Below, piece by piece: positions 10,001 through 48,352 of a stretch of 64,000 bases of DNA. The translations under genes were made by a program, and so were the position numbers. Under the pieces are notes generated by a model. It had not been told where the DNA came from and ran no database searches. It saw only the letters and a list, made by a program, of their open reading frames with translations. How positions within the stretch are numbered: position 1 is the first letter of the stretch; each line of letters starts with the position of its first letter. The stretch comes from an uncultured Candidatus Saccharibacteria bacterium (GTDB lineage: Bacteria; Patescibacteriota; Minisyncoccia; Phycocordibacterales; PALSA-1337), in the NCBI GenBank assembly GCA_964412585.1, contig CAYPPJ010000001.1:84151-148150 (forward strand), given 5' to 3'.

Positions 10001-11089
10001 ATGGTTGGCCTGCTCTTCAGCGGTAATCTCATTTCGATCACCATTTTGTAATTCGAAATAGAGCGCATCAAAATGTGCATAACGATTTACATTTTTTGGC
10101 ACATGGAAAAACTTGGCATCAACTTTTCCGAGAGCACGAATAAACGCAGGATTTTTATATCCGGTCTCTTCGACAATCTCTGCAATCGCTGCTTCTTCGG
10201 GAGTCTGCTTCCCTTCGACCCCACCTGTGATAAGCGTCTGCCAATCTACCTTCTTCCATTTGAGACCAATATATTTATCCTCTGACCAATGCTTCACAAT
10301 CGCGACAATAGCTTTGCGCTCAACAAAAGGAAGCTCGTGTCTGACTGCACCAGGCTCTGTCGTCTGCGTAAAACAAGGCACATCATCAGTACCTTCGAGA
10401 ATGTCTCCTTTTGGCGTTACCCGTGCATTCAGACTATTCAATAGTCGATCAGCATATTTCGTAATAGCCAGCATCCATTGCTCTTTCTCTCGCTTTTCGA
10501 CTGGCGTACCGCAACGTTCACATTTTCCATCGATAACCTCTTCGTTGGCGAGACCGATCAGGTCTTTTGGACACCAATTGATGGTCATCTTCTTTTTGTA
10601 CGCCAGTCCTTTTTTGAAAAATTGAAGGAAAATCCACTGCGTCCACTTGTAATAAGCAGGATCTGTGGTGTTTATCTCCCTCGACCAATCAAATGAAATA
10701 CCGATAGACTGAATTTGCTTTCGAAATGTATCGGAGTTTTTCTTTGTTACAACACGTGGGTCCTGACCAGTCTTAATAGCATAGTTCTCTGTAGGCAATC
10801 CGAAGGCATCCCATCCAATCGGATACAAGACATTGTAACCCTGCGCGCGACGTTTGCGAGCAATAACATCCATAGCAATATATGGACGCGGATGTCCCAC
10901 ATGCAACCCGTCCCCAGATGGATACGGAAATTCAATGAGACCGTAGAATTTTTTCTTCGTTGAATCTTCTTTTACTTGATAGAGTTTCTTTTTCTCCCAA
11001 TATTTTTGCCACTTCGGCTCAATCTTTGTGTGGTCGTATGCACCGATGGTAGAAGCCATTTTTGTCGCTTTTGCTGAAGCTTTTATCAT
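7031..11089 (-). CDS. leuS: Leucyl-tRNA synthetase carrying three large insertions (two NUDIX-like, one Ham1/ITPase-like)
   Basis: HIGH motif HVGH, editing-domain signature TTRPDTLFG, KMSKS motif VKMSKS and the RDWIFSRQRYWGEPIP stretch are all present. The protein is 1352 aa, against a typical length near 860. Alternative start at 11059 (MASTIG...). Confidence 0.9.
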   Translation of the reverse strand: MIKASAKATKMASTIGAYDHTKIEPKWQKYWEKKKLYQVKEDSTKKKFYGLIEFPYPSGDGLHVGHPRPYIAMDVIARKRRAQGYNVLYPIGWDAFGLPTENYAIKTGQDPRVVTKKNSDTFRKQIQSIGISFDWSREINTTDPAYYKWTQWIFLQFFKKGLAYKKKMTINWCPKDLIGLANEEVIDGKCERCGTPVEKREKEQWMLAITKYADRLLNSLNARVTPKGDILEGTDDVPCFTQTTEPGAVRHELPFVERKAIVAIVKHWSEDKYIGLKWKKVDWQTLITGGVEGKQTPEEAAIAEIVEETGYKNPAFIRALGKVDAKFFHVPKNVNRYAHFDALYFELQNGDRNEITAEEQANHEVVWLSKEEMTAFVSPDSQRYVWAKFLNPAITAESFGKPLLDWKDAIKEQQRNWIGKSEGAELEFSIKSDVQKRRVLIGTRNEAKIMMVKTCLKDVSQLELISLNDLPPLDDSDLVEGNDHLANARLKSEYYFKKTGIPTISTDHVFWVEKWPTDGGVIHHIRKLANPKSGRATDEEVIEYTLKFLKGVGGASKAKFIYGLAFTDEKGTISAEQSPYEYYLQTERSEKSQPGYPMESLLKYVETGQFKVEQDESLRYKKTEELLKDTFVPRMVGSRRIKVFTTRPDTLFGVTYVVLAPEHTLVKELLSVVENKSEVELYIAKVKKESEMERTDATKEKTGVELKGVKAINPAKKEEVPVWIADYVLADYGKGAVMAVPAHDERDGMFAKKYGLPVREVVAPLINVTQGDFASRPGVKTVARECILAIVKHWEKDEFLCLKAPKHGWTTFVIGGIDPGEDPVEAAKREIIEETGFTDFVLVKKLGGHVYAKHFAPHKNENRSAMLDGYYFELKSGAQQPVAEHESNHQQISWVARKDIPTALYPKITDWAFWQRFVSPDASFVGDGILENSGSFSGKESSLVKKEITESVGGKWITTFKLRDWIFSRQRYWGEPIPVVNCQKCGLVPVPEKDLPIKLPSVKNYKPTETGESPLAAITAWVNTKCPQCKGPAQRETDTMPNWAGSSWYYLRYVDPKNKKVFADKKNLDYWTPVDWYNGGMEHTTLHLLYSRFWHKFLFDLGLVPTDEPYTKRTSHGLILAEGGVKMSKSKGNVINPDSIVATVGADSLRLYEMFMGPFDQPIAWDTNNIAGVRRFIERVWKLREKVVAQTDEKVGDVILVNKIIHKAIKKVSDDIEAMRFNTAISTLMITVNELEKVQVIDCEQYGVLLQLLAPFAPHVTEELWASLGNKKSINCAPWPVYDATLAADDEVTIIVQINGKMRGSFTVPTDSSQEELENRAKAIPEALKWIEGKEVKKIIVVPNKLVNIVVV

Positions 11090-18637: not shown

Positions 18638-19466
18638 TATTTTGAGCAAGCACCCAGCGAATCTGGTATACATTGAGCGGCGGAGCAAAGAGTACTGTCT
18701 TGAAAGGTTGGGTAGGATCAAGTAGAACTGATGAGACAATACCGATCGGCTTTTCATCAAACGATCCGCCGAGAACAAAATCCCCTTCTGCAACTGGCGA
18801 CTCACGCGATATCTGTGCTTCGTACTGTCCTCCTCCACGGCCAACGGCAGTTGCAGCAATATGAGTCGAACCTATGAGTACGGGAATATTTTCACCTGGC
18901 GATGTAAACAATCTGACTTTCGCAGTCGACGCGAAGACATCGACGACACGGCCAATCAATACATTTCCTTGGGCATATATGAGTGTACTGGTTGATATCG
19001 CATAATCACGTCCTATATCCATAATAAGTTGGTCGTATCCCGAAACCGGTGGCCGACGAAGTACTGCAGCAAGTATGAGAGGCTTTGAAAGATGAGGAGG
19101 ATTTTTCGATTTTGAGCTACTGGTGCTAGTAGCATGTTGCGTACTATCACGTCCCAAGAGCAGCTTGAGTTCAGCATTTTCTACTTCAAGAGCTTCAGTT
19201 GCTGCAAGTCGAACCTGCATATCAGCCAAAGTACGATTCAACACCTCCTTTTCGGCAAGAAGCGTTTCGGCCGAAAGAAGTCCCCCACTCCGTATTGAAA
19301 ATTCGGTACGCCAAAAAGGTCTAGCGATCGCCACAAATATGCCAGGAAAAAACCGGGGCGAAATCACTTGGATAACAATAATAACTATAGCCACGACTGC
19401 GGCACCAAAAGCAATATTCTGCCTCATACGCTGGTACGGTCGTTTATGAGTTTGAAGGTAAGTCAT
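18630..19466 (-). CDS. mreC: Rod shape-determining protein MreC
   Basis: An N-terminal TM segment is followed by a coiled-coil (LADMQVRLAATEALEVENAELKLL) and a beta-rich C-terminal domain. It sits between mreB and mreD. Confidence 0.8.
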   Translation of the reverse strand: MTYLQTHKRPYQRMRQNIAFGAAVVAIVIIVIQVISPRFFPGIFVAIARPFWRTEFSIRSGGLLSAETLLAEKEVLNRTLADMQVRLAATEALEVENAELKLLLGRDSTQHATSTSSSKSKNPPHLSKPLILAAVLRRPPVSGYDQLIMDIGRDYAISTSTLIYAQGNVLIGRVVDVFASTAKVRLFTSPGENIPVLIGSTHIAATAVGRGGGQYEAQISRESPVAEGDFVLGGSFDEKPIGIVSSVLLDPTQPFKTVLFAPPLNVYQIRWVLAQNND

Positions 19467-20511
19467 CTTCGCTTTCTATGAGTACTGAACGATATTTTTC
19501 CAAATCTTCCAAGATGACACCCGCGCCTCGGGCAATGGCGGTCAGGGGATCTTCTGCAATAGTTATAGGAATATTGAGCGTCTCAAGGAGTAGTGCGTCG
19601 AGACCTTTGATGAGTGCCCCGCCTCCTACAAGGTGAATGCCGCGCTTCATAACGTCTGCGAGAATTTCAGGCGGTGTCGTCTCAAGAACTTCTTTTGTTG
19701 CCTCAAGAAGAACATCAATCGACTGACCGATGGCCTCGCGGATATCTGAATCGGTAATGATAACTTCACGTGGCAAACCAGTGATGAGATCGCGGCCACG
19801 AATAGTAGTTTCGAGCGGCTCTCCAGGAAGAACGGCACCGACATCTTTTTTTACTTGTTCAGCAGTCGTTTCGCCAATCAGGATTTTGAATTCATTACGA
19901 ATATACGAAATGATATCGTTGTTGAGCTTGTCACCGGCAATTTTCAAATTTTTTGAACGAACAATACCACCAAGAGAAATAACCGCGATATCAGTCGTAC
20001 CTCCTCCAATATCAATAATCATACTTCCCACGGGTTCATGGATCGGCAAGCGAATACCAATCGCTCCCGCCATGGGCTGCTCAACAATATACACTTCGCG
20101 AGCGCCAGCATTTTTTGTCGCATCACGAACGGCGCGTACTTCAACGTTGGTCACACCTGACGGAACTCCGACGACCACGCGAGGACCAAGAAATTTCTTT
20201 GGCATGTATTCTCCAGCACGGCGCATGAGATACGCCAACATTTCTTCAGTCACTTCGAAGTCAGAAATGACGCCATCAACAAGCGGACGAACCGCGGTGA
20301 TGTGCGTTGGGGTACGTCCGAGCATATCTTTTGCGGTCTGACCAACAGCTACAACTTGTCCGGTTTTCTGGTTGACGGCAACCACTGAAGGCTCATTTAC
20401 GACAATGCCTTTACCACGAACATAAACCAGCGTATTAGCGGTACCGAGATCAATACCGATATCATTTGAAAAACGGCTCAATAGGTGGTTCTTTTTCTCC
20501 TTGAACGTCAT
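19444..20511 (-). CDS. mreB: Rod shape-determining protein MreB (actin homolog)
   Basis: IGIDLGTANTLVYV, DIGGGTTD and GGGALIKGLD ATPase motifs. It is the first gene of the mreBCD-mrdA operon. Confidence 0.9.
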   Translation of the reverse strand: MTFKEKKNHLLSRFSNDIGIDLGTANTLVYVRGKGIVVNEPSVVAVNQKTGQVVAVGQTAKDMLGRTPTHITAVRPLVDGVISDFEVTEEMLAYLMRRAGEYMPKKFLGPRVVVGVPSGVTNVEVRAVRDATKNAGAREVYIVEQPMAGAIGIRLPIHEPVGSMIIDIGGGTTDIAVISLGGIVRSKNLKIAGDKLNNDIISYIRNEFKILIGETTAEQVKKDVGAVLPGEPLETTIRGRDLITGLPREVIITDSDIREAIGQSIDVLLEATKEVLETTPPEILADVMKRGIHLVGGGALIKGLDALLLETLNIPITIAEDPLTAIARGAGVILEDLEKYRSVLIESEDDLPSNS

Positions 20512-25765: not shown

Positions 25766-26779
25766 CTACCTCTTACTCATCATGGTCTTCTTGTACACAT
25801 CCAAATGTTCAAGTGCGATACCAGTCCCCTTTGCAACACAGAGCAGCGGCTCATCTGCCATCTGCGCCTTGACGCCAGTACGACGAAATACGAGTTCGGG
25901 AAGATTACGAAGCATCGATGAACCGCCCGTCATCGTGATTCCTTGATCAATAATGTCCGCTGCCAATTCTGGAGGAGTTTCCTGGAGTACATCTTTGATA
26001 GCTTTGATCATGTCACGCAAAGGCGCAGCAATCGCTTTTACGATTTCATTTGTTTTGATCTCAGTCGAGCGAGGAAGTCCAGAAATATAATCGCGTCCCT
26101 TCACTTGCATGCCTAGCTCCTGATCGAGTGGGATAGCAGAACCAATAGTGATCTTGATTATTTCAGCCATGTGGTCACCAATAGCAAGGTTGAATGTTTT
26201 TTTGACGTAGTCAGTAATAGCAGCGTCTATTTTATTTCCAGCAACTTTTACCGAAGTTGAAGACACTATTCCTCCCAACGAAATAACTGCCACATCAGTA
26301 GTGCCTCCACCAATGTCGACAATCATATGTCCGCGTGGTTCTTGGATCGGAATACCTGCACCAATAGCGGCGAGAATTGGCTCTTTGACCACATACGCAT
26401 TTTTTGCGCCTGCACGGAGAGCAGCTTCAACGACTGCGCGGCGTTCAGTGGAGGTAATACCGGCAGGTACAGACACCATGACATCAGGTTTGAAAAATGA
26501 AAAACGGCCTAGGGCTTTATCTATAAAATAGCGGAGCATGGCCTCGGTCACACGGTAATCAGCGATAACTCCATCGCGCATCGGACGATAGGCAACAATA
26601 TTATCTGGCGTGCGACCAACCATTTCCTTTGCCTCATTGCCTACGGCGAGGACTTTTTTATCAACTTCAGAAACCGCTACTACTGAAGGCTCATTCAGGA
26701 TAATTCCCTTACCTGGCAAAAAAACCAGTGTATTAGCTGTGCCGAGGTCAATGCCAAGTTTTGATGAAAAGAGACCCAT
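25766..26779 (-). CDS. mreB: Second MreB/Mbl-family actin homolog
   Basis: LGIDLGTANTLVFL, DIGGGTTDVAV and MTGGSSMLRNL motifs. It shares roughly half its residues with the mreB at 19444..20511. Confidence 0.85.
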   Translation of the reverse strand: MGLFSSKLGIDLGTANTLVFLPGKGIILNEPSVVAVSEVDKKVLAVGNEAKEMVGRTPDNIVAYRPMRDGVIADYRVTEAMLRYFIDKALGRFSFFKPDVMVSVPAGITSTERRAVVEAALRAGAKNAYVVKEPILAAIGAGIPIQEPRGHMIVDIGGGTTDVAVISLGGIVSSTSVKVAGNKIDAAITDYVKKTFNLAIGDHMAEIIKITIGSAIPLDQELGMQVKGRDYISGLPRSTEIKTNEIVKAIAAPLRDMIKAIKDVLQETPPELAADIIDQGITMTGGSSMLRNLPELVFRRTGVKAQMADEPLLCVAKGTGIALEHLDVYKKTMMSKR

Positions 26780-37670: not shown

Positions 37671-38642
37671 ATGAGAATCGCCTTTGTAGGAAAAGGCGGG
37701 TCAGGTAAGAGCACTCTTTCTGCCTCATTCGCCACATATGTGTCCAAACAAAATACCAGACCGGTCGTTGTCTTTGACGCTGATCTCAATATCCATGCAC
37801 CAGAGCTCCTTGGATTTAATACTATCCCCTTTGAAAAACACCTTTCGCATCCCGTAGTGGCAAAATCCATACAGAAATGGCTCATTGGCAACAATGATAT
37901 TCAAAACCTTGGCGCATTCCGCAAATCAACACCGCCAACTCGTAAGTCGAATATTATCAACATCGAATCAATCAATGAGACTCCGCTACAATCATTTGGT
38001 CTACACGGGGGTAATCTTTCAGTCTTCGCCGTTGGAACATACCAGGAACAAGATATCGGAGCGAGTTGCTACCATAACAACCTTGCCATTCTCGAGAGCA
38101 TCTTGAACCATACAAATGACAAGAATGGGTACATAATCGCTGACATGGTCGCGGGGGTCGACTCATTTGCAGGGACACTCCATGCCCAGTTTGACCTCAC
38201 CTGCCTCATCGTCGAACCAACCATGAGGAGTGTCGAAGTGTACACAAGATATATTGAGCTTGCCACTGAAGCTGGCATCGCAGACAGTGTGCGAGTCATT
38301 GGCAATAAAATAAGAAATGATACGGATCGAGATTTTATCACGTCTCATATTCCGAAGAATAAAATCATTGGCTACTTCACTGACGACGAATATATTCGCA
38401 CTATTGATCAAGATGGGACCATACTTGATACCACAAAATTACTTACATCCAACCAGGAACTACTGAAAAACATCCTCACCATTCTTGATTCGTTGCCCGA
38501 TAGTCGAAATACGCGCCTAAAGAACTTGTGGAAGTTACATAAGAAATATGTAGCCCAAGGTTTTATTAAAGAACGCTTTGGTGACCTTACACATCAGATC
38601 GACTCTGATTTTTCATTTACCCATGAAGATGAAAACGAGTGA
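37671..38642 (+). CDS. CooC/MinD-family P-loop NTPase (SIMIBI class; metallochaperone-like)
   Basis: Deviant Walker A FVGKGGSGKST. VVVFDADLN, IIADMVAGVD and LIVEPTMRSVEV...VIGNKIRND align with CooC/AcsF. A partial Cys/His metal motif (GASCYH) sits where CooC has CxC. Confidence 0.7.
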   Translation: MRIAFVGKGGSGKSTLSASFATYVSKQNTRPVVVFDADLNIHAPELLGFNTIPFEKHLSHPVVAKSIQKWLIGNNDIQNLGAFRKSTPPTRKSNIINIESINETPLQSFGLHGGNLSVFAVGTYQEQDIGASCYHNNLAILESILNHTNDKNGYIIADMVAGVDSFAGTLHAQFDLTCLIVEPTMRSVEVYTRYIELATEAGIADSVRVIGNKIRNDTDRDFITSHIPKNKIIGYFTDDEYIRTIDQDGTILDTTKLLTSNQELLKNILTILDSLPDSRNTRLKNLWKLHKKYVAQGFIKERFGDLTHQIDSDFSFTHEDENE

Positions 38643-40092
38643 ACAAAAGGTGTTAAATACATTTGAGGGAAATACCGCTGTCCTTGATTTTCTCAATCCT
38701 GATAATGCTCCGTACGTTCCGCTGGTTGAAATTCCTGATCATGTAAATCCATATCGCAAAGATGGTATACGGGTGTTCGCGAAGCTCATGAACGCATTAC
38801 CACTCGCCAATATAAAATCACTACCGGCATATAATATGCTCGCGGAAAAAAAGAAGAACGGTAACCTTGAAGGTATTGATACAATTATTGAAAATTCTTC
38901 CGGAAATACTGTTTTTTCTCTAGCAGTAATTGCCAAATTAATGGGAATACACCACACAAAAGGTATATGCTCACATCAGGTGAGTATCGGAAAACTAAAT
39001 CTACTGCGATTTCTCGGCACTGAAGTCATTGTGAATGAAGAACCTATCTGTCCCGATCCGAATGACCCGACAAGTGGAATCTACAAGGCAAAACTGTGGT
39101 CCAAGGAAAATGGCTGGTTTAACCCTGGACAATATGACAATGAAGCAAATCCTGAAGCTCACTATAAATGGACTGGGCCACAAATCTGGGAGCAGACGGG
39201 AGGCAAAGTATCACTTGTTAGTATTGGTCTTGGCACAACTGGATCAGTTGTCGGTATTGGAACATATCTCAAGGAAAAGAATCCGGGCGTTGAAATAGTC
39301 GGCGTATCCCGTATCGCCAATAACCCTGTCCCTGGAGTACGGACACACAACCTGCTTCAGGAAATCGCTTTTGACTGGAAATCTATACTAGACCATCAGG
39401 AAGAAGTTGGTACATCCGAGTCATTCAAGATGTCGATGGAGTTATGCCGTTCGGGACTTTTTGTTGGACCGAGCTCGGGCTTTGCCTTGGTTGGATTATT
39501 CAATCACCTTTCAAAACAAAAACGTACGAACGAAGAAAAGATTGCGGTATTTGTTTGCCCTGATAGTCCATTTCCGTACATTGATGAATATTTTCAATAC
39601 CTTGACCCTTCCGCATTTCCAAAAATTGAAAATGAGCATCTGCTTAGGGAAAAAAATCATACGCCAGTATCACACAGTCCTACCGTTAAAGAATACCCTC
39701 CCGAACACGTTTTCAATCTTGTATTTGAAGGTACTCCCGAACACATTTGGAAAAAAATAAAACGCAAAGAAAGCATACATCTCATAAAAGGTTATAATAT
39801 CATCGACATTCGCAACGAAGGTGAATATGAAGATCATCATATACCAGAATCAATCCATGTCCCCTTTCATAGCCTTGATGACTATCTCAAGAAAAACAAA
39901 AAGAAACTCACAAAAAATAAGGCGGTAATATTTGTTTGCAGACATGGCAATACGAGCCGTCTGGCCGCCTACAAAGCTGAGCAGGTAGGTATTGCTTCAA
40001 TGAGTCTCAAGGGTGGTGATGCTGAGTGGAGTCGACTTAATCTGCCAAGAATTAGATCGGAAAAATGTATTACCAGATTCGACCTGCAATAG
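38623..40092 (+). CDS. Cysteine-synthase-family (fold-type II PLP) enzyme fused to a C-terminal rhodanese domain
   Basis: The CysK-like region has the putative PLP lysine (LANIKSLPAYN), an SGNT motif (ENSSGNTVFS) and a Gly-rich loop (GLGTTGSVVGIG). The C-terminal rhodanese domain has the active-site loop CRHGNTS. The start overlaps the preceding gene. Confidence 0.7.
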   Translation: MKMKTSEQKVLNTFEGNTAVLDFLNPDNAPYVPLVEIPDHVNPYRKDGIRVFAKLMNALPLANIKSLPAYNMLAEKKKNGNLEGIDTIIENSSGNTVFSLAVIAKLMGIHHTKGICSHQVSIGKLNLLRFLGTEVIVNEEPICPDPNDPTSGIYKAKLWSKENGWFNPGQYDNEANPEAHYKWTGPQIWEQTGGKVSLVSIGLGTTGSVVGIGTYLKEKNPGVEIVGVSRIANNPVPGVRTHNLLQEIAFDWKSILDHQEEVGTSESFKMSMELCRSGLFVGPSSGFALVGLFNHLSKQKRTNEEKIAVFVCPDSPFPYIDEYFQYLDPSAFPKIENEHLLREKNHTPVSHSPTVKEYPPEHVFNLVFEGTPEHIWKKIKRKESIHLIKGYNIIDIRNEGEYEDHHIPESIHVPFHSLDDYLKKNKKKLTKNKAVIFVCRHGNTSRLAAYKAEQVGIASMSLKGGDAEWSRLNLPRIRSEKCITRFDLQ

Positions 40093-40203: not shown

Positions 40204-40638
40204 GTGGAATTCAAATCAACATACAAACGTCCCTGTCTCGCAACTTCCCCCACAGGGAAATCGGGTGTCATCATTCTGATAAGTGGCATCTCGACTGCTG
40301 AGTTTCAAAGCCAGGAAAAAGGCAGAGAGATTCTCAAGGAACTCGTCGCGGGAGACCTGGTCTCTGCGCACGACGGAGAACGCATTGAGGACCACCTGAA
40401 TGCTTCGGATCTGCCGGCAACCGAGCAGAAAGAAGATCCCCGTGGCTTATCTTCTTCCATACTCCTACTTGCAGTGTTGGGAGCAATTCTCGAACACCAC
40501 TCCACAGGATCGGACGTGCACTCGCATAAGTGTCCGAAATGTGGTACCACCTGGGACCACGACGGTTCAAAGTTGGATGGTCGCGATGCGGCACACAAAT
40601 GCCCGAAATGCGGTCACGAGCAGTGGGAGAGGGTTTGA
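40204..40638 (+). CDS. Hypothetical protein with a C-terminal duplicated CPKCG zinc ribbon (GC-rich islet)
   Basis: HKCPKCGTTWDHDGSKLDGRDAAHKCPKCGHEQWERV gives two CxxC pairs. Local GC is about 55% against a window average near 43-45%. The antisense ORFs here are probably GC artefacts. Confidence 0.4.
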   Translation: MEFKSTYKRPCLATSPTGKSGVIILISGISTAEFQSQEKGREILKELVAGDLVSAHDGERIEDHLNASDLPATEQKEDPRGLSSSILLLAVLGAILEHHSTGSDVHSHKCPKCGTTWDHDGSKLDGRDAAHKCPKCGHEQWERV

Positions 40639-41896: not shown

Positions 41897-42970
41897 TCAA
41901 TTCACCTTCTCCAAGTGCATAGTGGCCACGAAGTCTCCTGGAAGTACTTGTGTAGCCATCGCCGCAATACCTTTGTTTGAGGTAATGCCACGAATACACG
42001 AGCGCACATCCTTTTGCGGACCATCACCCTTATCCTTGCACTGATTTATGAGACCAAGAATATCGTAACCAAATGCAGCTCCAAAGTTTGGTTCTTTACC
42101 AAATTTCGATACATACTTTTGTCGAAAAGCCGCAGATTCTGGGCTATCAAGTGAAAAATCATAGGAGGTTGAATAGAATGGTATGCCTTTGACTTGCTCA
42201 CGATTGCCCGCGTCAGCAAATACCGCACTGGTCTCGACGAGAGGCATAGTCAGACCAAGTCGAGCATAGGTCTTCACTATACCTACTGCTTCACCAGGAG
42301 TCGCCGGAACAATAAGGAGAACGTCAGCACCTGACGCTTTGACTTTTGAAAGATGCGTAGAAAAATCAGTCTCTGCAGGTTTGAAGGACTCCATAAAGAC
42401 TATCTCCTTGGCATACTGAGCGCTCAAGGCTCTAATTTCATCTTTTACTGATCCACCTAACTCATCATTACGATAGAGGACAGCAATCTTCCGTGCGTTT
42501 TGTACCGGTGACATCGAACTGGTAAATGATGGGCCGGCATAGTGGGCCGGGTCGGTATAGTAACGAATTGTGTAGTCATTGACGATGACCGAGGAGCTGG
42601 CTGCGACCAGTGTCACCAGCAATGGAATTTTCTTTTCAAGTGCCACCTTGGAAAGTGGGACACTTACCGCTGATATCTCAGAGAGCATCAGATTGACGCC
42701 CTGCTCCTGAAGACGATTGAAAGCAGAAACTCCGTCAGCCGGGGCACCTTTGGTATCCTCATAGAGAATTTTGATGCCAGGCGTCTCTGCCAATGCAAGT
42801 TCCATGCCATTCTTAACCGTCTCACCCCAGAGTGCTGCGGGGCCAGTGAGTGGTAAGGCAGCGCCAACTACAAAGTCAGCGTTAGTCGCCGGAGGAGTAC
42901 TCGGCGCATTGAAAATTGCAATCAGTACAATGATAATGACAATAACGACTGCTGTAATTATTTTTTTCAT
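41897..42970 (-). CDS. Periplasmic-binding-protein type I (LivJ/LivK-like branched-chain amino-acid ABC substrate-binding protein), orphan
   Basis: An N-terminal lipoprotein or signal-anchor is followed by an ANF-receptor / PBP1 fold (LPLTGPAALWGE...). No adjacent permease or ATPase genes. Confidence 0.7.
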   Translation of the reverse strand: MKKIITAVVIVIIIVLIAIFNAPSTPPATNADFVVGAALPLTGPAALWGETVKNGMELALAETPGIKILYEDTKGAPADGVSAFNRLQEQGVNLMLSEISAVSVPLSKVALEKKIPLLVTLVAASSSVIVNDYTIRYYTDPAHYAGPSFTSSMSPVQNARKIAVLYRNDELGGSVKDEIRALSAQYAKEIVFMESFKPAETDFSTHLSKVKASGADVLLIVPATPGEAVGIVKTYARLGLTMPLVETSAVFADAGNREQVKGIPFYSTSYDFSLDSPESAAFRQKYVSKFGKEPNFGAAFGYDILGLINQCKDKGDGPQKDVRSCIRGITSNKGIAAMATQVLPGDFVATMHLEKVN

Positions 42971-43018
42971 GATAGGAAAATGGTACCACTTGAGGTACCA
43001 TTTGCCAACTACTTCTTT

Positions 43019-43141
43019 TCATCTTTACCACCCTTGTCTCCTTTGCCTCCCTTCTTATCGTCCTTTTTCTTGTGAGAACTGCCGTAGAATAAAATAACAA
43101 GCACAACAATTATTATAACTACTGTTTCCATGGTATTAGTA
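43019..43141 (-). CDS. Possible 40-aa peptide: hydrophobic helix plus lysine-rich tail
   Basis: METVVIIIVVLVILFYGSSHKKKDDKKGGKGDKGGKDEKK lies immediately upstream of the SBP gene on the same strand. It is below the ORF-track cutoff. Confidence 0.3.
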
Positions 43142-43230
43142 TACCCTAAAACAGTAGACCCATGAAGTTATGCACATATAGATTGTCTCAAATAAACACA
43201 TAAATATAGTACAATATACTCATACACGCC

Positions 43231-43581
43231 ATGCAATCCCCGAAACCGTATCGCGAAGAGCGACCTTGGGGGGAGTTTGTTGAGTTTACTCACAACACCC
43301 CTTCAACAGTCAAAATTATAACCGTTAATGCTGGTCAAGAATTTAGCCTGCAAACACATCACAAAAGAGATGAATTTTGGCACGTGATCTCAGGTGACGG
43401 AACAATGATTATTGGGGACAAAACTATTCCCATCAAAAAGGGTGACAATGATTTTATCCCAAAAGAAACTCAGCATCGTATTACTGCAGGCACCTCAAAC
43501 GTGGTCGTACTTGAGGTTTCATTTGGAGATTTTGATGAACACGATATAACTCGGCTCGAGGATAAGTATGGTAGATCTTAA
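43231..43581 (+). CDS. Cupin-type mannose-6-phosphate isomerase (type II PMI C-terminal cupin, standalone)
   Basis: RPWGEFVEF...VKIITVNAGQEFSLQTHHKRDEFWHVISGDG is the ManC C-terminal cupin signature. Confidence 0.65.
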   Translation: MQSPKPYREERPWGEFVEFTHNTPSTVKIITVNAGQEFSLQTHHKRDEFWHVISGDGTMIIGDKTIPIKKGDNDFIPKETQHRITAGTSNVVVLEVSFGDFDEHDITRLEDKYGRS

Positions 43582-43596
43582 CCAATACCGCTGCAT

Positions 43597-44754
43597 TTGC
43601 ACCGCAGCATTTCAATGAACGTAACACCCGACTACTCCCCCTTTGTCATAGCATTCTTTTCATTGGCGATTGCCGTTGCCATCGGAGTAACCTGGTATCT
43701 TTTTTATACATGGAAACGTGGTAGTTCAAAAAAACAGCGTACTGACCACAAAGTACAGCGACACCACGCAAACCCTGTCATGTCCCCACGCCCACACCAA
43801 GAGTGGGAGGCCAACGGCACATTCAATCCTGCCGCCGTCGAAGATGATGCGGGACGAGTCCACCTCCTCTATCGTGCTATTGGCGCCGACGGACTTTCAC
43901 ATATCGGGCACGCATCAAGTCCTGATGGCGTAACTTTTGATCGCCGTTCATCATTTCCGGTATATCAACCAGATATCGAAGAAAAAAGACCCGGGGACTC
44001 AAAGCCAACAGGTCCAACAGAGTATAATCCGACACTCTATTACTCAGGTGGTGGCTGGGGTGGTCATGAAGATCCACGAGCAGTACAGATCGATGGCCGA
44101 GTGTATATGACCTATACCGCTTTTCAAGGATGGGATTCAGTTCGTATTGCGCTTACTTCGATCGATCTTAAGGATCTGAAAAAAGAACGCTGGAATTGGA
44201 AAAAACCGAAACTCATTTCTCCGCCAGGCGAAGTGCACAAGAACTGGGTTCTCTTTCCTGAAAAAATTAACGGAAAATTTGCCATTTTACATGCTGTGTC
44301 ACCACAAATCCTGATCGACTATGTCGATAATATTGACGATCCCCACCCCTTGAAACATATCAAGAGTAAACCACCAAAAGGTGGCCGAGAGGGGCATTGG
44401 GACAACTGGATGCGCGGCGCAGGAGCTCCACCACTACGGACTGATCTCGGCTGGCTTCTTCTCTATCATGCCATGGACAAGCGTGATCCCAATAAATACA
44501 AGCTCGGCGTCATGATCCTTGATATCAATGATCCGACTCGTGTCCTCTATCGCTCCCCTGGCCCCGTTCTTTCACCAGAGGCATGTTATGAAAATGATGG
44601 TAAACCTGGTGTCGTGTACGCATCTGGAGCACTTATTCGTGATGGCCAACTGCATGTATATTATGGTGGCGGCGACAAACATGTATGTGTCGCAAAAACT
44701 CCACTCAAAGGGCTTCTTGATTGGATGGTCACGTACGGTACGCATACAAGCTAG
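43597..44754 (+). CDS. Glycoside hydrolase family 130 (beta-mannoside phosphorylase-like) with N-terminal TM anchor
   Basis: FNPAAV, LLYRA, HEDPRAV and MTYTAFQG are GH130 / DUF377 five-bladed-propeller signatures. A single TM helix precedes the domain. Confidence 0.75.
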   Translation: MHRSISMNVTPDYSPFVIAFFSLAIAVAIGVTWYLFYTWKRGSSKKQRTDHKVQRHHANPVMSPRPHQEWEANGTFNPAAVEDDAGRVHLLYRAIGADGLSHIGHASSPDGVTFDRRSSFPVYQPDIEEKRPGDSKPTGPTEYNPTLYYSGGGWGGHEDPRAVQIDGRVYMTYTAFQGWDSVRIALTSIDLKDLKKERWNWKKPKLISPPGEVHKNWVLFPEKINGKFAILHAVSPQILIDYVDNIDDPHPLKHIKSKPPKGGREGHWDNWMRGAGAPPLRTDLGWLLLYHAMDKRDPNKYKLGVMILDINDPTRVLYRSPGPVLSPEACYENDGKPGVVYASGALIRDGQLHVYYGGGDKHVCVAKTPLKGLLDWMVTYGTHTS

Positions 44755-44782
44755 CCACCTGCGCATGATATAATCACTCTAT

Positions 44783-46669
44783 ATGTTCACCGTCACCCGC
44801 TCCGAACACAACCCTATTCTTTCACCGTTGCGTGAACATTCCTGGGAAGCCGCCGCAGCATTCAATGGCTCACCTGTTGTACAGGGCCGTCGTACAACGT
44901 TGGTATATCGAGCAATGTCAGAACCAGAACTTCTCAAAGAACCTCATATACGAATGTCAGTTATTGCCCGCGCCGATTCAAAGGATGGAGTCAACTATGA
45001 AAATCGCTCAGTGCTCATTTCCCCTGATACAGACTTTGACCGTTATGGATGCGAGGATCCGCGTGTCACCAAAATAGGAAAAACATACTATATTTTTTAT
45101 ACCGGACTTGGCGGATACCCTTTTTCTGCTGACAACATCAAAGTATGTGTCGCGCTGAGTACTGATCTCAAGACAATAACTGAAAAACATGTGGTTACGC
45201 CATTCAACGCAAAGGCTATGGCGCTTTTTCCGGAAAAGATAAACGGCAAGCTGGCGGCACTTGTCACAGTCAACACGGATCGAAAACCTTCAGACATTTG
45301 CTACATTGAATTCAACACACCTGAGGACATATGGTCAGAGGATTATTGGAATGAATGGTATAAAAATCTTGATGCGCACAAACTAAAGATTCGTCGTAAG
45401 GACGATGATCATATTGAGCTTGGCGCCGTGCCCATAAAAACTGAAAAAGGTTGGTTGTTTGTCTATTCTCATATTCAGCGCTATGACAAACCTGACCACG
45501 TCTTTGGTATTGAAACTATTTTGCTTGATCTCAATACCCCCCAAGAAATTATTGCTGGAACAAAAGGACCATTCATGGTTCCTGAGGCGTACTATGAACA
45601 TGTTGGCCAAGTCCCCCATGCCATATTCCCTTCCGGAGCACTTATTCGCGGCGAACGATTGGAAATATACTATGGTGCCGCTGACTCACATTGTTCCGTC
45701 GCGACAATACCAGTCGACGCTCTGCTTGATGGCCTGCTCAATATAGACAAAGAACATTCTCCACTCAAACGCTTCAAAGGAAACCCGATTATTACACCCC
45801 GACCCGGAGTCCTCTGGGAAAGTCGTGGCACACTCAATCCGGCCGCGATCGATATTGGAAACAAAACCCATATTTTGTATCGCGCTGTTTCGGCTGATAA
45901 CGTTTCCACGATCGGTTACGCCAGTACAAGCGATGGCTTTACTATAGAAGAGCGCTCAAACAAGCCCATATACAAGCCGCGCATCAGTTTTGAATCAAAA
46001 GGCTGTGAAGATCCACGCATCATGCTTATTGAAAATCGCATCTATATGACCTATACCGCCTATGATGGAGGACTGCCGCGCGTCGCAGTAACATCTATCT
46101 CTAGTGAAGATTTTCTCAAGAAAAAATGGAGTGCATGGACACAGCCAGAAATTATTTCTCCGATGAACGTAGACAACAAAGACGCCGCTATCTTACCCGA
46201 GGCCACCAATGGAAAATACTTGGTATTTCATCGTGTACATGAAAATATATGTGGCGATTTGCTCAATTCTCTCGATTTTTCAAAAGAAAAAATATCTCGT
46301 TGTATTGATATTCTTGCTCCACGCAAAGGCATGTGGGATGGCATGAAAGTTGGTATCTCAACACCACCTGTGCGCACTACCAAGGGTTGGCTGATGCTCT
46401 ATCATGGAGTCTCCTGGAGTTCTATCTATCGTGTCGGCGCAGTGCTGCTTGATTTCAAGGATCCAACATTAGTATTGGCCCGTACTGCCATTCCATTTTT
46501 TGAGCCGGAAGAATCGTATGAACTGAACGGGATCGTCAACAACGTGGTCTTCCCGTGCGGCATGGTTATTCGTGGTGGAGTCGTATACATCTATTATGGT
46601 GGCGCTGATCTCGTAGTTGGTGTAGCTACAATCAAGCTTGAGGCCCTTATGGAAATGCTCAATAAATGA
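44783..46669 (+). CDS. Tandem double GH130 (two complete GH130 domains in one 628-aa protein)
   Basis: Domain 1 (about 44783-45727) and domain 2 (about 45728-46669) each carry NPxxx/NPAAI, LVYRA/LYRAV and GCEDPR motifs. Both domains are homologous to the upstream GH130 gene. Confidence 0.75.
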   Translation: MFTVTRSEHNPILSPLREHSWEAAAAFNGSPVVQGRRTTLVYRAMSEPELLKEPHIRMSVIARADSKDGVNYENRSVLISPDTDFDRYGCEDPRVTKIGKTYYIFYTGLGGYPFSADNIKVCVALSTDLKTITEKHVVTPFNAKAMALFPEKINGKLAALVTVNTDRKPSDICYIEFNTPEDIWSEDYWNEWYKNLDAHKLKIRRKDDDHIELGAVPIKTEKGWLFVYSHIQRYDKPDHVFGIETILLDLNTPQEIIAGTKGPFMVPEAYYEHVGQVPHAIFPSGALIRGERLEIYYGAADSHCSVATIPVDALLDGLLNIDKEHSPLKRFKGNPIITPRPGVLWESRGTLNPAAIDIGNKTHILYRAVSADNVSTIGYASTSDGFTIEERSNKPIYKPRISFESKGCEDPRIMLIENRIYMTYTAYDGGLPRVAVTSISSEDFLKKKWSAWTQPEIISPMNVDNKDAAILPEATNGKYLVFHRVHENICGDLLNSLDFSKEKISRCIDILAPRKGMWDGMKVGISTPPVRTTKGWLMLYHGVSWSSIYRVGAVLLDFKDPTLVLARTAIPFFEPEESYELNGIVNNVVFPCGMVIRGGVVYIYYGGADLVVGVATIKLEALMEMLNK

Positions 46670-47421
46670 CCTCTGTATTTTCAAAACAGCTCATCATGTT
46701 TGATCTTGATGGCACACTTGGGAAAAGCAAGTGCGCTCTCGATCCTGAGATGGAACAGCTTCTGCAAAAACTTATCACCATAAAAAAGGTGGCTATTATT
46801 TCTGGTGGAGGCTACCCGCAATTTCAGACCCAAGTGCTGAATGCTTTTCCTCGCGATGAGCATTTTACCAATCTATTTCTGTTACCCACCTCCGGTACTC
46901 GGCTGTATTCATGGCGCGGAACATGGAACGAACAATACGCGGAGCACCTTTCCCCTCGCGAAAAGGAAAAAGTCATGGTTTCGCTCAATATGGCACTCAA
47001 GCAAGCCGGCCATATCCAACCAGCAAAGACATATGGTCCGATTATTGAAGATCGGGGATCACAAATCACTTTCTCCGCCCTCGGACAGCAGGCTCCCGTT
47101 GAAGAAAAAGCTGTATGGGATCCTACTCGAGAAAAACGCGAAGCAATCGTCTCTTTTTTACAACCTCGAATACCTGAATTTGATGTTCGTATTGGCGGAA
47201 GCACGTCCATAGATATTACCAAGAAGGGTGTCAATAAAGCCTACGGTATCCGCAAGCTTGAGGAATTTTTACATCTGACTCCCGATGATATTATATTTGT
47301 TGGTGATACTCTGTTTCCCGGCGGCAACGACTACCCCGCAAAGGCAACGGGTGTTGACTGTATTCCTGTCAAAAATCCCGAGGATACAAAAAAACTGATC
47401 AGTGGATGGCTCAACGAGTAA
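46666..47421 (+). CDS. Phosphomannomutase of the eukaryotic type (HAD-IIB family)
   Basis: HAD motif I FDLDGTL. The C-terminal FVGDTLFPGGNDYP...PEDT aligns with eukaryotic PMM (FFGDKTMPGGNDHE...PEDT). The start overlaps the GH130 stop. Confidence 0.7.
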   Translation: MTSVFSKQLIMFDLDGTLGKSKCALDPEMEQLLQKLITIKKVAIISGGGYPQFQTQVLNAFPRDEHFTNLFLLPTSGTRLYSWRGTWNEQYAEHLSPREKEKVMVSLNMALKQAGHIQPAKTYGPIIEDRGSQITFSALGQQAPVEEKAVWDPTREKREAIVSFLQPRIPEFDVRIGGSTSIDITKKGVNKAYGIRKLEEFLHLTPDDIIFVGDTLFPGGNDYPAKATGVDCIPVKNPEDTKKLISGWLNE

Positions 47422-48352
47422 CTTTCTTTTCGAATTCTCTGATGAGGATTCGCGTGTCATTTTCGCGCGCCCCAAACGAGCTACCAAGAATGATGAACAC
47501 AATCTGTTGACCATTGATGTCGAGAATAGTCATCATCGTTTCTCCGGCCAACGTCGTACGCCCGGTCTTGCCACCAATAAATCGCGGATCATTCACAAAC
47601 GGATGTGTACTCGTAACCAGGTGACCACCATGCTCAGTAGTCGTCGCGAGTGTCATCTCGGGCGTTCTGGTGATAGTCAAGATATCTGGGCGATAATTGA
47701 CGAGGTATTTCGCCAGTTCAAATAGATCTTTTGCTGACGCGGCGTTTTGTGGACTCACGCCAGAAGGGTCGGCAAAGAAACTTGAGGGCATGCCAACCTC
47801 CCAGGCATAACTACTCATCATTTCCATAAAGCGGGCACGATTTCCTTTTGAGAGTGAGATCGCTTCGGCTGCAACATTAGAAGAACTCAAGAGAAGCGGG
47901 TGGAGTATTTCTTCCAGTGAATAGCTTTCATTGGCCTGCAGATTGCTGGTGTCGGGTGGTGCAGATAATGTACTCGAAGCAATACGTATAGTGGTTGTCG
48001 GCCCCATCATGTCAGTCGCCACGAACGCCGTCACTAGTTTTGACATCGAGGCAACTGGCAGTGATTTGCTACTATTACGCTCTACATAAATAGTTCCCGT
48101 TTTAATATCTCCAACAAGATATGCGTGCGCAGTGAGTCCAGGTATAGGATTGATCGGTTTTTTTGTTGTCTGCACACCATCGGTTTCGAGAAATGCGGGA
48201 TCGAGGGCCGAAGCCGAGTCACTGTCTGTATCCATATCAATACCGATGCCACTCTGAGGTGCAGGAGTCTTGCCTATTTGAGTCGCGGCAGTTATGCCAA
48301 CGAGTGCCAAACAGATGCACATAAGAAGTATGAGACGTCCTTTGGTTTGCAT
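47411..48352 (-). CDS. D-alanyl-D-alanine carboxypeptidase (peptidase S11, PBP5/6-like)
   Basis: Signal peptide. SxxK (ASMSKL), SxN (SSSN) and KTG (KTGRT) motifs. Confidence 0.75.
   Translation of the reverse strand: MQTKGRLILLMCICLALVGITAATQIGKTPAPQSGIGIDMDTDSDSASALDPAFLETDGVQTTKKPINPIPGLTAHAYLVGDIKTGTIYVERNSSKSLPVASMSKLVTAFVATDMMGPTTTIRIASSTLSAPPDTSNLQANESYSLEEILHPLLLSSSNVAAEAISLSKGNRARFMEMMSSYAWEVGMPSSFFADPSGVSPQNAASAKDLFELAKYLVNYRPDILTITRTPEMTLATTTEHGGHLVTSTHPFVNDPRFIGGKTGRTTLAGETMMTILDINGQQIVFIILGSSFGARENDTRILIREFEKKVTR

Follow-up and report, generated by a model that had tools for sequence, protein, structure and literature searches.

The window analyzed here, 64,000 nucleotides (nt) of contig CAYPPJ010000001.1 (assembly GCA_964412585.1, positions 84,151 to 148,150 of the forward strand) from an uncultured Candidatus Saccharibacteria bacterium, harbors at positions 43231 to 47421 a cluster of four genes which encode a cupin of the type II phosphomannose isomerase (PMI) family, two proteins with three glycoside hydrolase family 130 (GH130) modules between them, and a HAD-IIB protein of the phosphomannomutase (PMM) family. 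We consider it probable that the cluster represents a core, lineage-wide operon of Patescibacteria (Paceibacteria/Parcubacteria) which reversibly links cytoplasmic beta-1,2-mannosides to central metabolism. In the following, the anchored 385-amino-acid (aa) GH130 protein is referred to as T-type, and the N- and C-terminal propellers of the 628-aa double GH130 protein as D1 and D2, respectively. The features of the locus are as follows.

43183-43220, + strand: promoter-like hexamer pairs 5' of the cupin gene, in a divergent intergenic region of 260 nt (weak; consensus scan only)
43231-43581, + strand: cupin, predicted mannose-6-phosphate (Man-6-P) <-> fructose-6-phosphate (Fru-6-P) isomerase; 116 aa, PF01050 match
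43597-44754, + strand: T-type GH130, N-terminal membrane anchor and propeller; 385 aa, TTG start, PF04041 match
43636-43719, + strand: predicted transmembrane (TM) helix of T-type (aa 14-41), from Kyte-Doolittle hydropathy and the helix in the AlphaFold2 (AF2) model
44783-46669, + strand: double GH130 protein; 628 aa, PF04041 match in two stretches
44783-45742, + strand: D1 propeller, aligned to 7FIP residues 12-307
45761-46669, + strand: D2 propeller with a full beta-1,2-mannoside phosphorylase signature, aligned to 7FIP residues 15-309
46666-47421, + strand: HAD-IIB phosphohexomutase of the PMM/alpha-phosphoglucomutase (APGM) family, predicted mannose-1-phosphate (Man-1-P) <-> Man-6-P, glucose specificity possible; 251 aa, PF03332 match
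47431-47452, + strand: terminator-like hairpin with a 9-bp stem and T-rich tail, 10 nt past the HAD stop codon (weak; consensus scan)

All four open reading frames (ORFs) are present in the window sequence on the + strand, and the description of the genes as co-directional and abutting or overlapping in the first-pass annotation, made from the sequence without database searches, holds: 15 nt separate the cupin gene from the T-type gene and 28 nt the latter from the gene for the 628-aa protein, which in turn shares a 4-nt ATGA overlap with the HAD gene. The 5' end of the T-type gene offers two possible starts six codons apart, TTG (43597) and ATG (43615); the true start may be the ATG, which is used by an identical database protein (P0121, 379 aa). 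No clear Shine-Dalgarno sequence was found ahead of any of the four genes, and no Rfam family (riboswitch or leader RNA) was matched in the upstream spacer (positions 42900 to 43300). The flanking genes lie on the opposite strand; the upstream one encodes a Peripla_BP-type binding protein and the downstream one a Peptidase_S11 protein. A Pfam scan of the window assigned the remainder to housekeeping functions (aminoacyl-tRNA synthetases, MreB/MreC/PBP2, a MurA-like protein, DnaB, RecR and ribosomal proteins) and returned no other sugar-metabolism genes.

Hundreds of Patescibacteria genomes contain the cluster, a widely conserved unit whose gene order is mostly maintained and which lies within housekeeping DNA. 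Two peptide patterns, searched against one genome for each GTDB species, gave at least 512 confirmed stretches, corresponding to approximately 250 to 500 genomes or more, and the best 80 of these (at least 512) stretches were used for all locus analyses, with genes classified from their ORFs. These 80 loci are labelled as the Patescibacteria lineages Taylorbacteria (the closest among the stretches listed, at 88%), Paceibacteria, Parcubacteria, Nomurabacteria, Moraniibacteria, Zambryskibacteria, Jorgensenbacteria and Minisyncoccia, together with one metagenome-assembled genome labelled Omnitrophota. Full-length orthologues of the double GH130 protein at 65-88% identity fill the top 120 protein clusters, as do those of T-type. 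The exact order cupin > GH130 > double GH130 > HAD occurs in 39 of the 80 loci, other arrangements placing HAD > cupin upstream or the cupin and HAD genes as a divergent pair. Where two GH130 genes and sufficient flank were available (62 loci), the cupin gene was present in 50, the HAD gene in 49 and both in 46. Clustering of the flanking ORFs of the 80 loci yielded no further consistent member, whether transporter, ManC, glycosyltransferase, kinase or any other family; other flank families were found in at most 25 loci, a pilin-like gene and Peptidase_S11 accounting for 24-25 loci of a close sub-lineage. In five loci (for example, L013, positions 7891-9465), the double GH130 and HAD genes are separated by an inserted gene for a 524-aa membrane histidine kinase (HisKA/HATPase_c), a possible regulatory link.

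Family membership was assessed by profile searches (cut-offs of 26 bits for PF04041, 23.6 bits for PF01050, 22.4 bits for PF03332 and 41.8 bits for TIGR01484). The GH130 model PF04041 was matched by T-type with 132 bits and by the 628-aa protein with 347 bits in two stretches, and every module aligns end to end with both 7FIP, a Thermoanaerobacter beta-1,2-mannobiose phosphorylase, and 9FJ8, a 1,2-beta-oligomannan phosphorylase, identity to the Thermoanaerobacter enzymes being 34-42%. The best solved relatives of T-type are 9FJ8 (161 bits) and 7FIP (142 bits); residues 1-310 of D1 align to residues 12-307 of 7FIP with 159 bits, while residues 4-296 of D2 align to residues 15-309 of the same structure with 198 bits and to 9FJ8 with 184 bits. 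A five-bladed propeller fold is supported by Foldseek searches with AF2 models, the top matches being 7FIP and 9FJ8 at target-normalized TM-scores of 0.85-0.88 for the double protein and 0.79-0.81 for T-type. The AF2 model of the 628-aa protein comprises two confident propellers (mean predicted local distance difference test [pLDDT] score of 87.8) and each half aligns with a whole enzyme, which bears out the proposal that this protein consists of two complete GH130 domains. A neighbor-joining tree resolves D1, D2 and T as three distinct monophyletic orthogroups, with T sister to D2. Membership of the propeller family GT108 was rejected, as no GT108 chain was among the PDB sequence matches at E <= 1e-5 and such structures were reached only by Foldseek, at E-values of 1e-7 to 1e-10 and 13-17% identity.

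Published rules allow the active-site residues of these modules to be interpreted. GH130 phosphorylases possess a proton-donor Asp, no catalytic base, and an Arg/His pair which binds phosphate (Arg168/His231 of UhgbMP) (Li et al. 2020, PMC7660257), and at the +1 subsite a Glu/Lys pair denotes beta-1,2 linkage while Tyr/Arg is typical of beta-1,4 and N-glycan enzymes (PMC7660257, Table 2; the beta-1,2 rule is also given in PMC4599007). In Uhgb_MS, the key residues are R47, E136, K184, R202 and R242, and the R202A substitution lowers phosphorolysis 16-fold (Ladeveze et al. 2025, PMC12814180). Residue equivalences were carried over from the pairwise alignments to 7FIP and 9FJ8, and conservation was counted in 119 (double GH130) and 117 (T-type) close homologues, more widely in 77 (double GH130) and 71 (T-type) GTDB species representatives and, for T-type, also in 148 representatives of 50%-identity clusters. 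The proton-donor Asp (Asp104 of UhgbMP, within the EDPR motif) is present in all three modules as D92 in D1, D410 in D2 and D159 in T-type, and is 100% conserved in 77-148 homologues, a result which upholds the GH130 assignment of the first-pass annotation. The Glu/Lys pair is likewise invariant throughout (E91/K144 in D1, E409/K466 in D2 and E158/K215 in T-type), and all three modules are thus predicted to be beta-1,2-specific. Because each of them carries this pair, N-glycan cores and beta-1,4-mannans are unlikely substrates, and the earlier suggestion that N-glycan cores or mannans are consumed gives way to a predicted beta-1,2-mannoside.

D2 has the complete set of residues expected of a phosphorylase. 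R367, E409, D410, K466, H483, R484, H541 and Y549 are 100% conserved both in the 119 close homologues and in the 77 species representatives, K522 is Lys in 119 of 119 close homologues (Lys in 71 and Arg in 6 of the 77), and the C-terminal D609 is found in 119 of 119 and 76 of 77 sequences, respectively. D2 is 42% identical to Teth514_1789.

The sugar-subsite and catalytic residues of D1 (R43, E91, D92, K144 and D301) are similarly invariant, but all four of its phosphate ligands are replaced, with Arg changed to Thr162, Lys/Arg to His210, His to Ser229 and Tyr to Phe241. The register of this alignment is supported by the matching AF2 strands 156-163 of D1 and 478-485 of D2. D166 of the L2 loop is invariant, H230 and E244 are conserved in 74 and 75 of the 77 species representatives, respectively, and E212, two residues past the Lys/Arg position, is invariant in an 18-sequence alignment. 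Arg167, which the HMMER alignment offered as a displaced phosphate Arg, was dismissed, being Arg in only 28 of the 77 species and lying, in the AF2 model, in a loop after the strand. The possibility that D1 is a decaying pseudo-domain was also discarded, as the mean identity of orthologues to the window protein is 60.5% for D1 and 61.1% for D2, and because this conservation equals that of D2, D1 is presumed to be functional.

T-type exhibits a different pattern of change. Its R, E, D, K, H, Y and D positions are invariant in the 117 close homologues; more widely, the C-terminal Asp is present in 70/71 species and 144/148 cluster representatives and the phosphate His, here His291, in 68/71 species and 121/148 cluster representatives, and Tyr301 is likewise kept. 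The "switch" Arg (equivalent to Arg202) is replaced by Ala233, this position being occupied by Ser, Gly, Ala, Thr or Asn in 117/117 close homologues; the Arg is also absent from 69/71 species representatives, and a small residue is present in all 93 T-type cluster representatives. The Lys/Arg position is hydrophobic (Met272 in the window protein) and is followed, at +1, by a conserved Arg273. These three changes are correlated, a small residue standing in for the Arg and a hydrophobic one for the Lys while an additional Arg appears at +1, and together they separate these 93 T-type representatives from 55 relatives which have both Arg and Lys.

Only D2 among the three modules therefore keeps the Arg/His pair by which a phosphorylase is predicted, and the first-pass reading of three phosphorylase domains has to be revised, the pair having undergone conserved loss in T-type and D1. 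Taken literally, that reading would have three phosphorylases of differing chain-length or acceptor preference catabolize host- or partner-derived beta-mannosides, including N-glycan cores and mannans, in an ATP-free scavenging route. It draws support from the catalytic Asp and sugar subsites kept in all modules, from the several phosphate-pocket residues which T-type retains, together with the nearby Arg273, and from precedent, as Thermoanaerobacter possesses two GH130 phosphorylases of different chain-length specificity and routes combining GH130, PMM and PMI are established for beta-1,4-mannosides (PMC4264767). We nonetheless regard it as unlikely: the Arg is gone in T-type, and Arg, His, Tyr and Lys are all gone in D1; the Glu/Lys pair points to beta-1,2 linkage and not to the Tyr/Arg of beta-1,4 and N-glycan enzymes (PMC7660257); no linked transporter, secreted glycosidase or binding protein was found in the 80 loci; and the cluster lies within the housekeeping DNA of a streamlined genome.

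Loss of the basic phosphate ligands is what turns GH130 phosphorylases into hydrolases (PMC4599007), and T-type and/or D1 could accordingly be envisaged as beta-1,2-mannosidases which trim substrates for D2, a proposal to which the D1 carboxylates D166, E212 and E244 near the former phosphate site lend some substance. Known hydrolases, however, carry Glu at both basic positions (Glu227 and Glu268 of BT3780) (Cuskin et al. 2015, PMC4599007). When the BT3780 positions were mapped by residue spacing from PMC4599007 rather than by direct alignment, the window proteins had Ala/Met (T-type), Thr/His (D1) and Arg/Lys (D2) at these sites, with no Glu in any module and with Ser, Gly or Ala and a hydrophobic residue typical of T-type, and an assignment of T-type and D1 to the GH130_3 hydrolases was rejected. 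Moreover, many known hydrolases are secreted while the present proteins are predicted to be cytoplasmic or cytoplasm-facing, and the energetic benefit of the route would be lost through hydrolysis, so that we consider the mannosidase proposal decidedly unlikely. The residues aligned for T-type and D1 match neither the rule published for phosphorylases nor that for hydrolases; because the catalytic Asp and the mannose subsites -1 and +1 are kept, the phosphate pocket is lost and the hydrolase glutamates have not been gained, a non-canonical step is proposed for both.

The membrane anchoring of T-type noted previously is corroborated by hydropathy (a Kyte-Doolittle 19-residue mean of 2.23 at residue 17) and by the AF2 model (mean pLDDT of 80.0), in which a helix spans residues 14-41. 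Of the 117 close homologues, 112 possess a TM-like segment, and the mean count of Lys and Arg flanking the helix is 1.2 on the N-terminal side and 4.3 on the C-terminal side; by the positive-inside rule, an N-out/C-in orientation with a cytoplasmic catalytic domain is predicted. No signal peptide or TM segment was predicted in the double GH130, HAD or cupin proteins. Across the wider diversity, however, the predicted anchor is lineage-specific and an exception. Approximately 105 of the 150 best T-type cluster representatives possess instead an N-terminal extension of 200-300 residues, which hmmsearch identified as a degenerate GH130-like propeller (6-46 bits), and only 10-13 are TM-anchored, such that tandem propellers appear to be the rule for both GH130 genes. 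In 13 loci of Moraniibacteria-like and other distant lineages (L057, L059-L061, L063, L065, L066, L070, L072, L076, L081, L085 and L086), T-type measures 608-678 aa, its N-terminal half being a degenerate propeller which lacks the catalytic motif and a TM helix. The triplication and fusion of GH130, the type of PMM and the anchor had been singled out in the first-pass annotation as unusual features; they are lineage-wide in Patescibacteria, and in place of the anchor most relatives have a degenerate propeller.

The characterized enzymes Teth514_1788 and Uhgb_MS are dimers (PMC12814180), because of which the fusions are readable as covalent pseudo-dimers, and D1 may be the fixed partner of D2 in such an arrangement. 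Two further chain architectures were observed among database proteins: P0241 (971 aa), a representative from the T-type search, joins T, D1 and D2 within one chain, and P0242 (697 aa) appears to have the composition TM-T-D2. Because P0241 fuses T, D1 and D2, it supports the notion of the three modules working together.

Assignment of the cupin to the C-terminal domain family of type II PMI was substantiated by a PF01050 match of 72 bits over profile positions 14-116 of 116 and by the motifs RPWG, SLQxHxxRxExW and HR, whose conservation across 59 orthologues is 95% or higher. Against TIGR01479, the model for the bifunctional enzyme which joins PMI to GDP-mannose pyrophosphorylase (GMP-PMI), only the C-terminal positions 361-467 were matched (70.7 bits versus an equivalog cut-off of 373), the cupin having no nucleotidyltransferase domain.

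The HAD protein matched PF03332 with 52 bits over profile positions 1-216 of 221, which places it in the PMM family and not among HAD phosphatases, and TIGR01484 (HAD-IIB) with 71.5 bits. Its C-terminal motif aligns with those of PMM1 and PMM2, as had been claimed, and 57 orthologues share the motifs FDxDxTL, EDR, GQxA, K190 (motif III Lys), GD and GND. Its earlier designation as a eukaryotic-type PMM consequently stands at the family level, but not at closer range: the best solved relative is 4BND, the alpha-phosphoglucomutase (alpha-PGM) of Lactococcus lactis (151 bits, 34.7% identity over 242 residues), while PMM1, PMM2 and fungal PMMs scored 57-68 bits (PMM2, 66 bits and 29.6% identity), and the position of PMM2 Arg141 is occupied by a Gln which is conserved in the orthologues and common to APGM, with Tyr at the equivalent of Arg123. 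The protein is best described as a putative HAD-type alpha-phosphohexomutase, for which bacterial precedent exists; its mannose specificity and PMM activity are predicted from gene context, namely, linkage to the GH130 genes and the PMI cupin.

These assignments bear on a further alternative, according to which the HAD protein is a general alpha-phosphoglucomutase and the cupin another sugar-phosphate isomerase or a non-enzymatic protein, both merely co-located with the GH130 genes. The identity of the closest characterized HAD relative as an alpha-PGM, the absence of equivalents of PMM2 Arg141 and Arg123, and the fact that the cupin passes a domain-level model only are all compatible with this view. 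It is, however, very unlikely in our estimation, given that the HAD and cupin genes stay with the GH130 genes whether they are placed downstream of them, upstream as HAD > cupin, or as a divergent pair, that the type II PMI motifs of the cupin are at least 95% conserved and that the product of a GH130 phosphorylase is Man-1-P.

While the gene anatomy, family membership, residue patterns, conservation and synteny were observed, all enzyme activities proposed in the following, as well as any direction of flux or origin of the mannoside, are inferred. D2 would act as a beta-1,2-mannoside phosphorylase which releases alpha-Man-1-P from beta-1,2-mannobiose or oligomannan or, in reverse, builds chains from Man-1-P; the HAD-type mutase would interconvert Man-1-P and Man-6-P, and the cupin Man-6-P and Fru-6-P. 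Because the four genes form a conserved unit, this link from GH130 via mutase and isomerase to Fru-6-P is the most economical interpretation. T-type and D1, which are ancient paralogues under purifying selection, would act on the same cytoplasmic beta-1,2-mannoside in a step other than canonical phosphorolysis, our preferred guess being glycosyl transfer, or chain initiation and handling. The route from beta-mannosides to Fru-6-P put forward in the first-pass annotation is in this form retained, in line with the family assignments and the conserved unit, with the amendments that only D2 is phosphorylase-like, that the linkage is predicted to be beta-1,2 and that PMM activity is assigned from context.

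Several points weigh against this proposal. The NCBIfam equivalog model for beta-1,2-mannobiose phosphorylase (NF052550, cut-off of 450 bits) was missed by both the double protein (416 bits) and T-type (199 bits). T-type may also have residual or altered phosphate binding through the kept His232, His291 and Tyr301 together with Arg273. Neither the window nor the flanks of the 80 loci encode a transporter or a source of beta-1,2-mannoside nearby. No close solved structure was found for the cupin, and, to our knowledge, stand-alone PF01050 cupins have received little direct biochemical support as PMIs. Finally, the nearest characterized relative of the HAD protein is a glucose-phosphate mutase with which it has cap-domain residues in common, and this enzyme, PgmH, is reportedly glucose-specific and inactive on mannose phosphates.

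Weak transferase activity with GDP-mannose (GDP-Man) was detected in all tested beta-1,2 GH130 phosphorylases, and a short L2 loop coupled with fewer phosphate contacts was proposed to favor transferase behavior (PMC12814180); the L2 loop of T-type is of the same length as that of Teth514_1788, and under this scheme, which is post hoc, T-type may lean towards a transferase. In GT108, transferase-only enzymes harbor His at the Arg position, and an Arg-to-His change in a GT108 ancestor abolishes phosphorylase activity (Franceus et al. 2024, PMC10913872), although phosphorylase versus transferase behavior in that family is not fully predictable from active-site residues alone (PMC10913872).

An extension of this reasoning is a mannogen-like reserve cycle resembling that of the Leishmania GT108 mannosyltransferase/phosphorylases (MTPs), in which an intracellular beta-1,2-mannan would be self-made, T-type and/or D1, supplied with GDP-Man or Man-1-P, would have a transferase or primer role, D2 would mobilize the polymer by phosphorolysis, and the mutase and isomerase would convey the product to Fru-6-P. 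One full and two remodeled phosphate pockets would mirror the phosphorylase and strict-transferase MTPs (PMC10913872), and the GDP-Man transferase activity of tested beta-1,2 GH130 phosphorylases and the short L2 loop of T-type (PMC12814180), the lack of a linked uptake system, the position of a near-universal cluster in the core genome of the lineage and the existence of a T-D1-D2 fusion all fit such a cycle. We nevertheless judge it rather unlikely, as no ManC or other GDP-Man source is encoded in the window or in the flanks of the 80 loci, the modules belong to GH130 and not to GT108 (with the distant Foldseek relationship given above), the GH130 transferase activity is, according to the authors of that study, possibly a curiosity without physiological relevance (PMC12814180), and no beta-1,2-mannan has been reported from these organisms. 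A more specific, Paceibacteria-type version appears improbable: in this self-contained cycle, the often membrane-tethered T-type and D1, with their re-tooled phosphate pockets, would start, extend or otherwise handle the polymer without phosphorolysis, D2 would mobilize it as Man-1-P without ATP, and the HAD mutase and mini-PMI would lead to Fru-6-P.

Elsewhere in the window, further features were recorded. Leucyl-tRNA synthetase (positions 7031-11089, - strand, 1352 aa) carries a NUDIX domain (approximately aa 803-904; PF00293, 82.9 bits) inserted after the editing domain. Two MreB paralogues (19444-20511 and 25766-26779, both - strand; PF06723, 439 and 454 bits) are encoded in the same 8-kb stretch as MreC and a PBP2-type transpeptidase. 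A pyridoxal phosphate-dependent enzyme of the PALP family (38578-40092, + strand) is fused to a C-terminal rhodanese domain, and its called TTG start overlaps by 65 nt the end of a gene for a CbiA/MinD-like ATPase (37671-38642, + strand). A candidate small ORF at 40204-40638 (+ strand) would encode two HKCPKCG zinc-ribbon-like motifs; the local G+C content is 0.478 versus approximately 0.45, and several ORFs overlap there on both strands.

Patescibacteria constitute a large share of bacterial diversity, and their carbon and energy metabolism is poorly understood; the operon is among the most conserved sugar-handling units found around this locus. If its proposed chemical core is right, it would allow the ATP-free entry of mannose units into glycolysis and, in reverse, the nucleotide-free building of beta-1,2-mannosides. 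T-type and D1 would furthermore represent direct test cases for the divide between phosphorylases, hydrolases and transferases within the GH130/GT108 fold, and the operon provides a concrete handle on whether ultra-small bacteria keep a carbohydrate reserve. A mannogen-like cycle, if true, would be a bacterial GH130 counterpart of the Leishmania GT108 system and would add a new mechanistic class to GH130. A Microgenomates genome was noted to contain two GH130 genes that lack signal peptides (PMC7143001); beyond this passing mention, no published description of the operon in the candidate phyla radiation was found in the literature searched. While the general pathway logic is already known, the combination of one canonical and two re-tooled GH130 modules with a HAD mutase and a mini-PMI appears to be undescribed.

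Compared with known systems, the cupin matches the C-terminal PMI domain and motifs of the bifunctional type II PMI-GMP enzymes (ManC/AlgA/XanB), but is stand-alone and has no nucleotidyltransferase. The HAD protein has the same HAD-IIB/PMM-family architecture, including the cap motifs EDR and GQxA, as L. lactis PgmH/APGM (4BND), a bacterial member of the "eukaryotic" PMM family; the pgmH gene, however, is not linked to mannoside genes, and because the HAD gene is instead bound to GH130 and PMI genes, Man-1-P is argued to be its substrate. The GH130_3 beta-1,2-mannosidases BT3780 and BACOVA_03624 resemble T-type and D1 in combining the beta-1,2 signature with an absence of basic phosphate ligands, yet they possess Glu227/Glu268 and many are secreted (PMC4599007, PMC7660257), neither of which applies to T-type or D1. 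With the Leishmania mannogen MTPs, the present modules have in common a five-bladed propeller, a (predicted) beta-1,2-mannan substrate and an organization as a set of paralogues differing in the phosphate-pocket Arg, which in the MTPs separates phosphorylase-capable from transferase-only members (PMC10913872); the MTPs differ in belonging to another family, in carrying His at the Arg position of the transferase-only members where Ser, Gly or Ala (T-type) or Thr (D1) is found here, in being eukaryotic and in having a known GDP-Man supply.

The closest solved and characterized relatives of all three modules are Teth514_1788 and Teth514_1789 of Thermoanaerobacter sp. X-514 (GH130_6; EC 2.4.1.339/340), at TM-scores of 0.79-0.88. 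The likeness extends to the beta-1,2 Glu/Lys signature, the side-by-side placement of GH130 paralogues and the cytoplasmic location, which is predicted for the present proteins, and D2 has every catalytic and phosphate residue of the Thermoanaerobacter enzymes, sharing with Teth514_1789 a Lys at the Arg242 position. The Thermoanaerobacter cluster, however, also encodes an ABC transporter, GH5, ManC and GT4 and was proposed to feed GDP-mannose synthesis (PMC4264767), whereas the present cluster contains the PMI cupin and HAD mutase in their place. Both Thermoanaerobacter enzymes are, moreover, canonical and separate, while in the system described here two of the three modules lack the phosphate pocket, two are fused and one is predicted to be tethered to the membrane.

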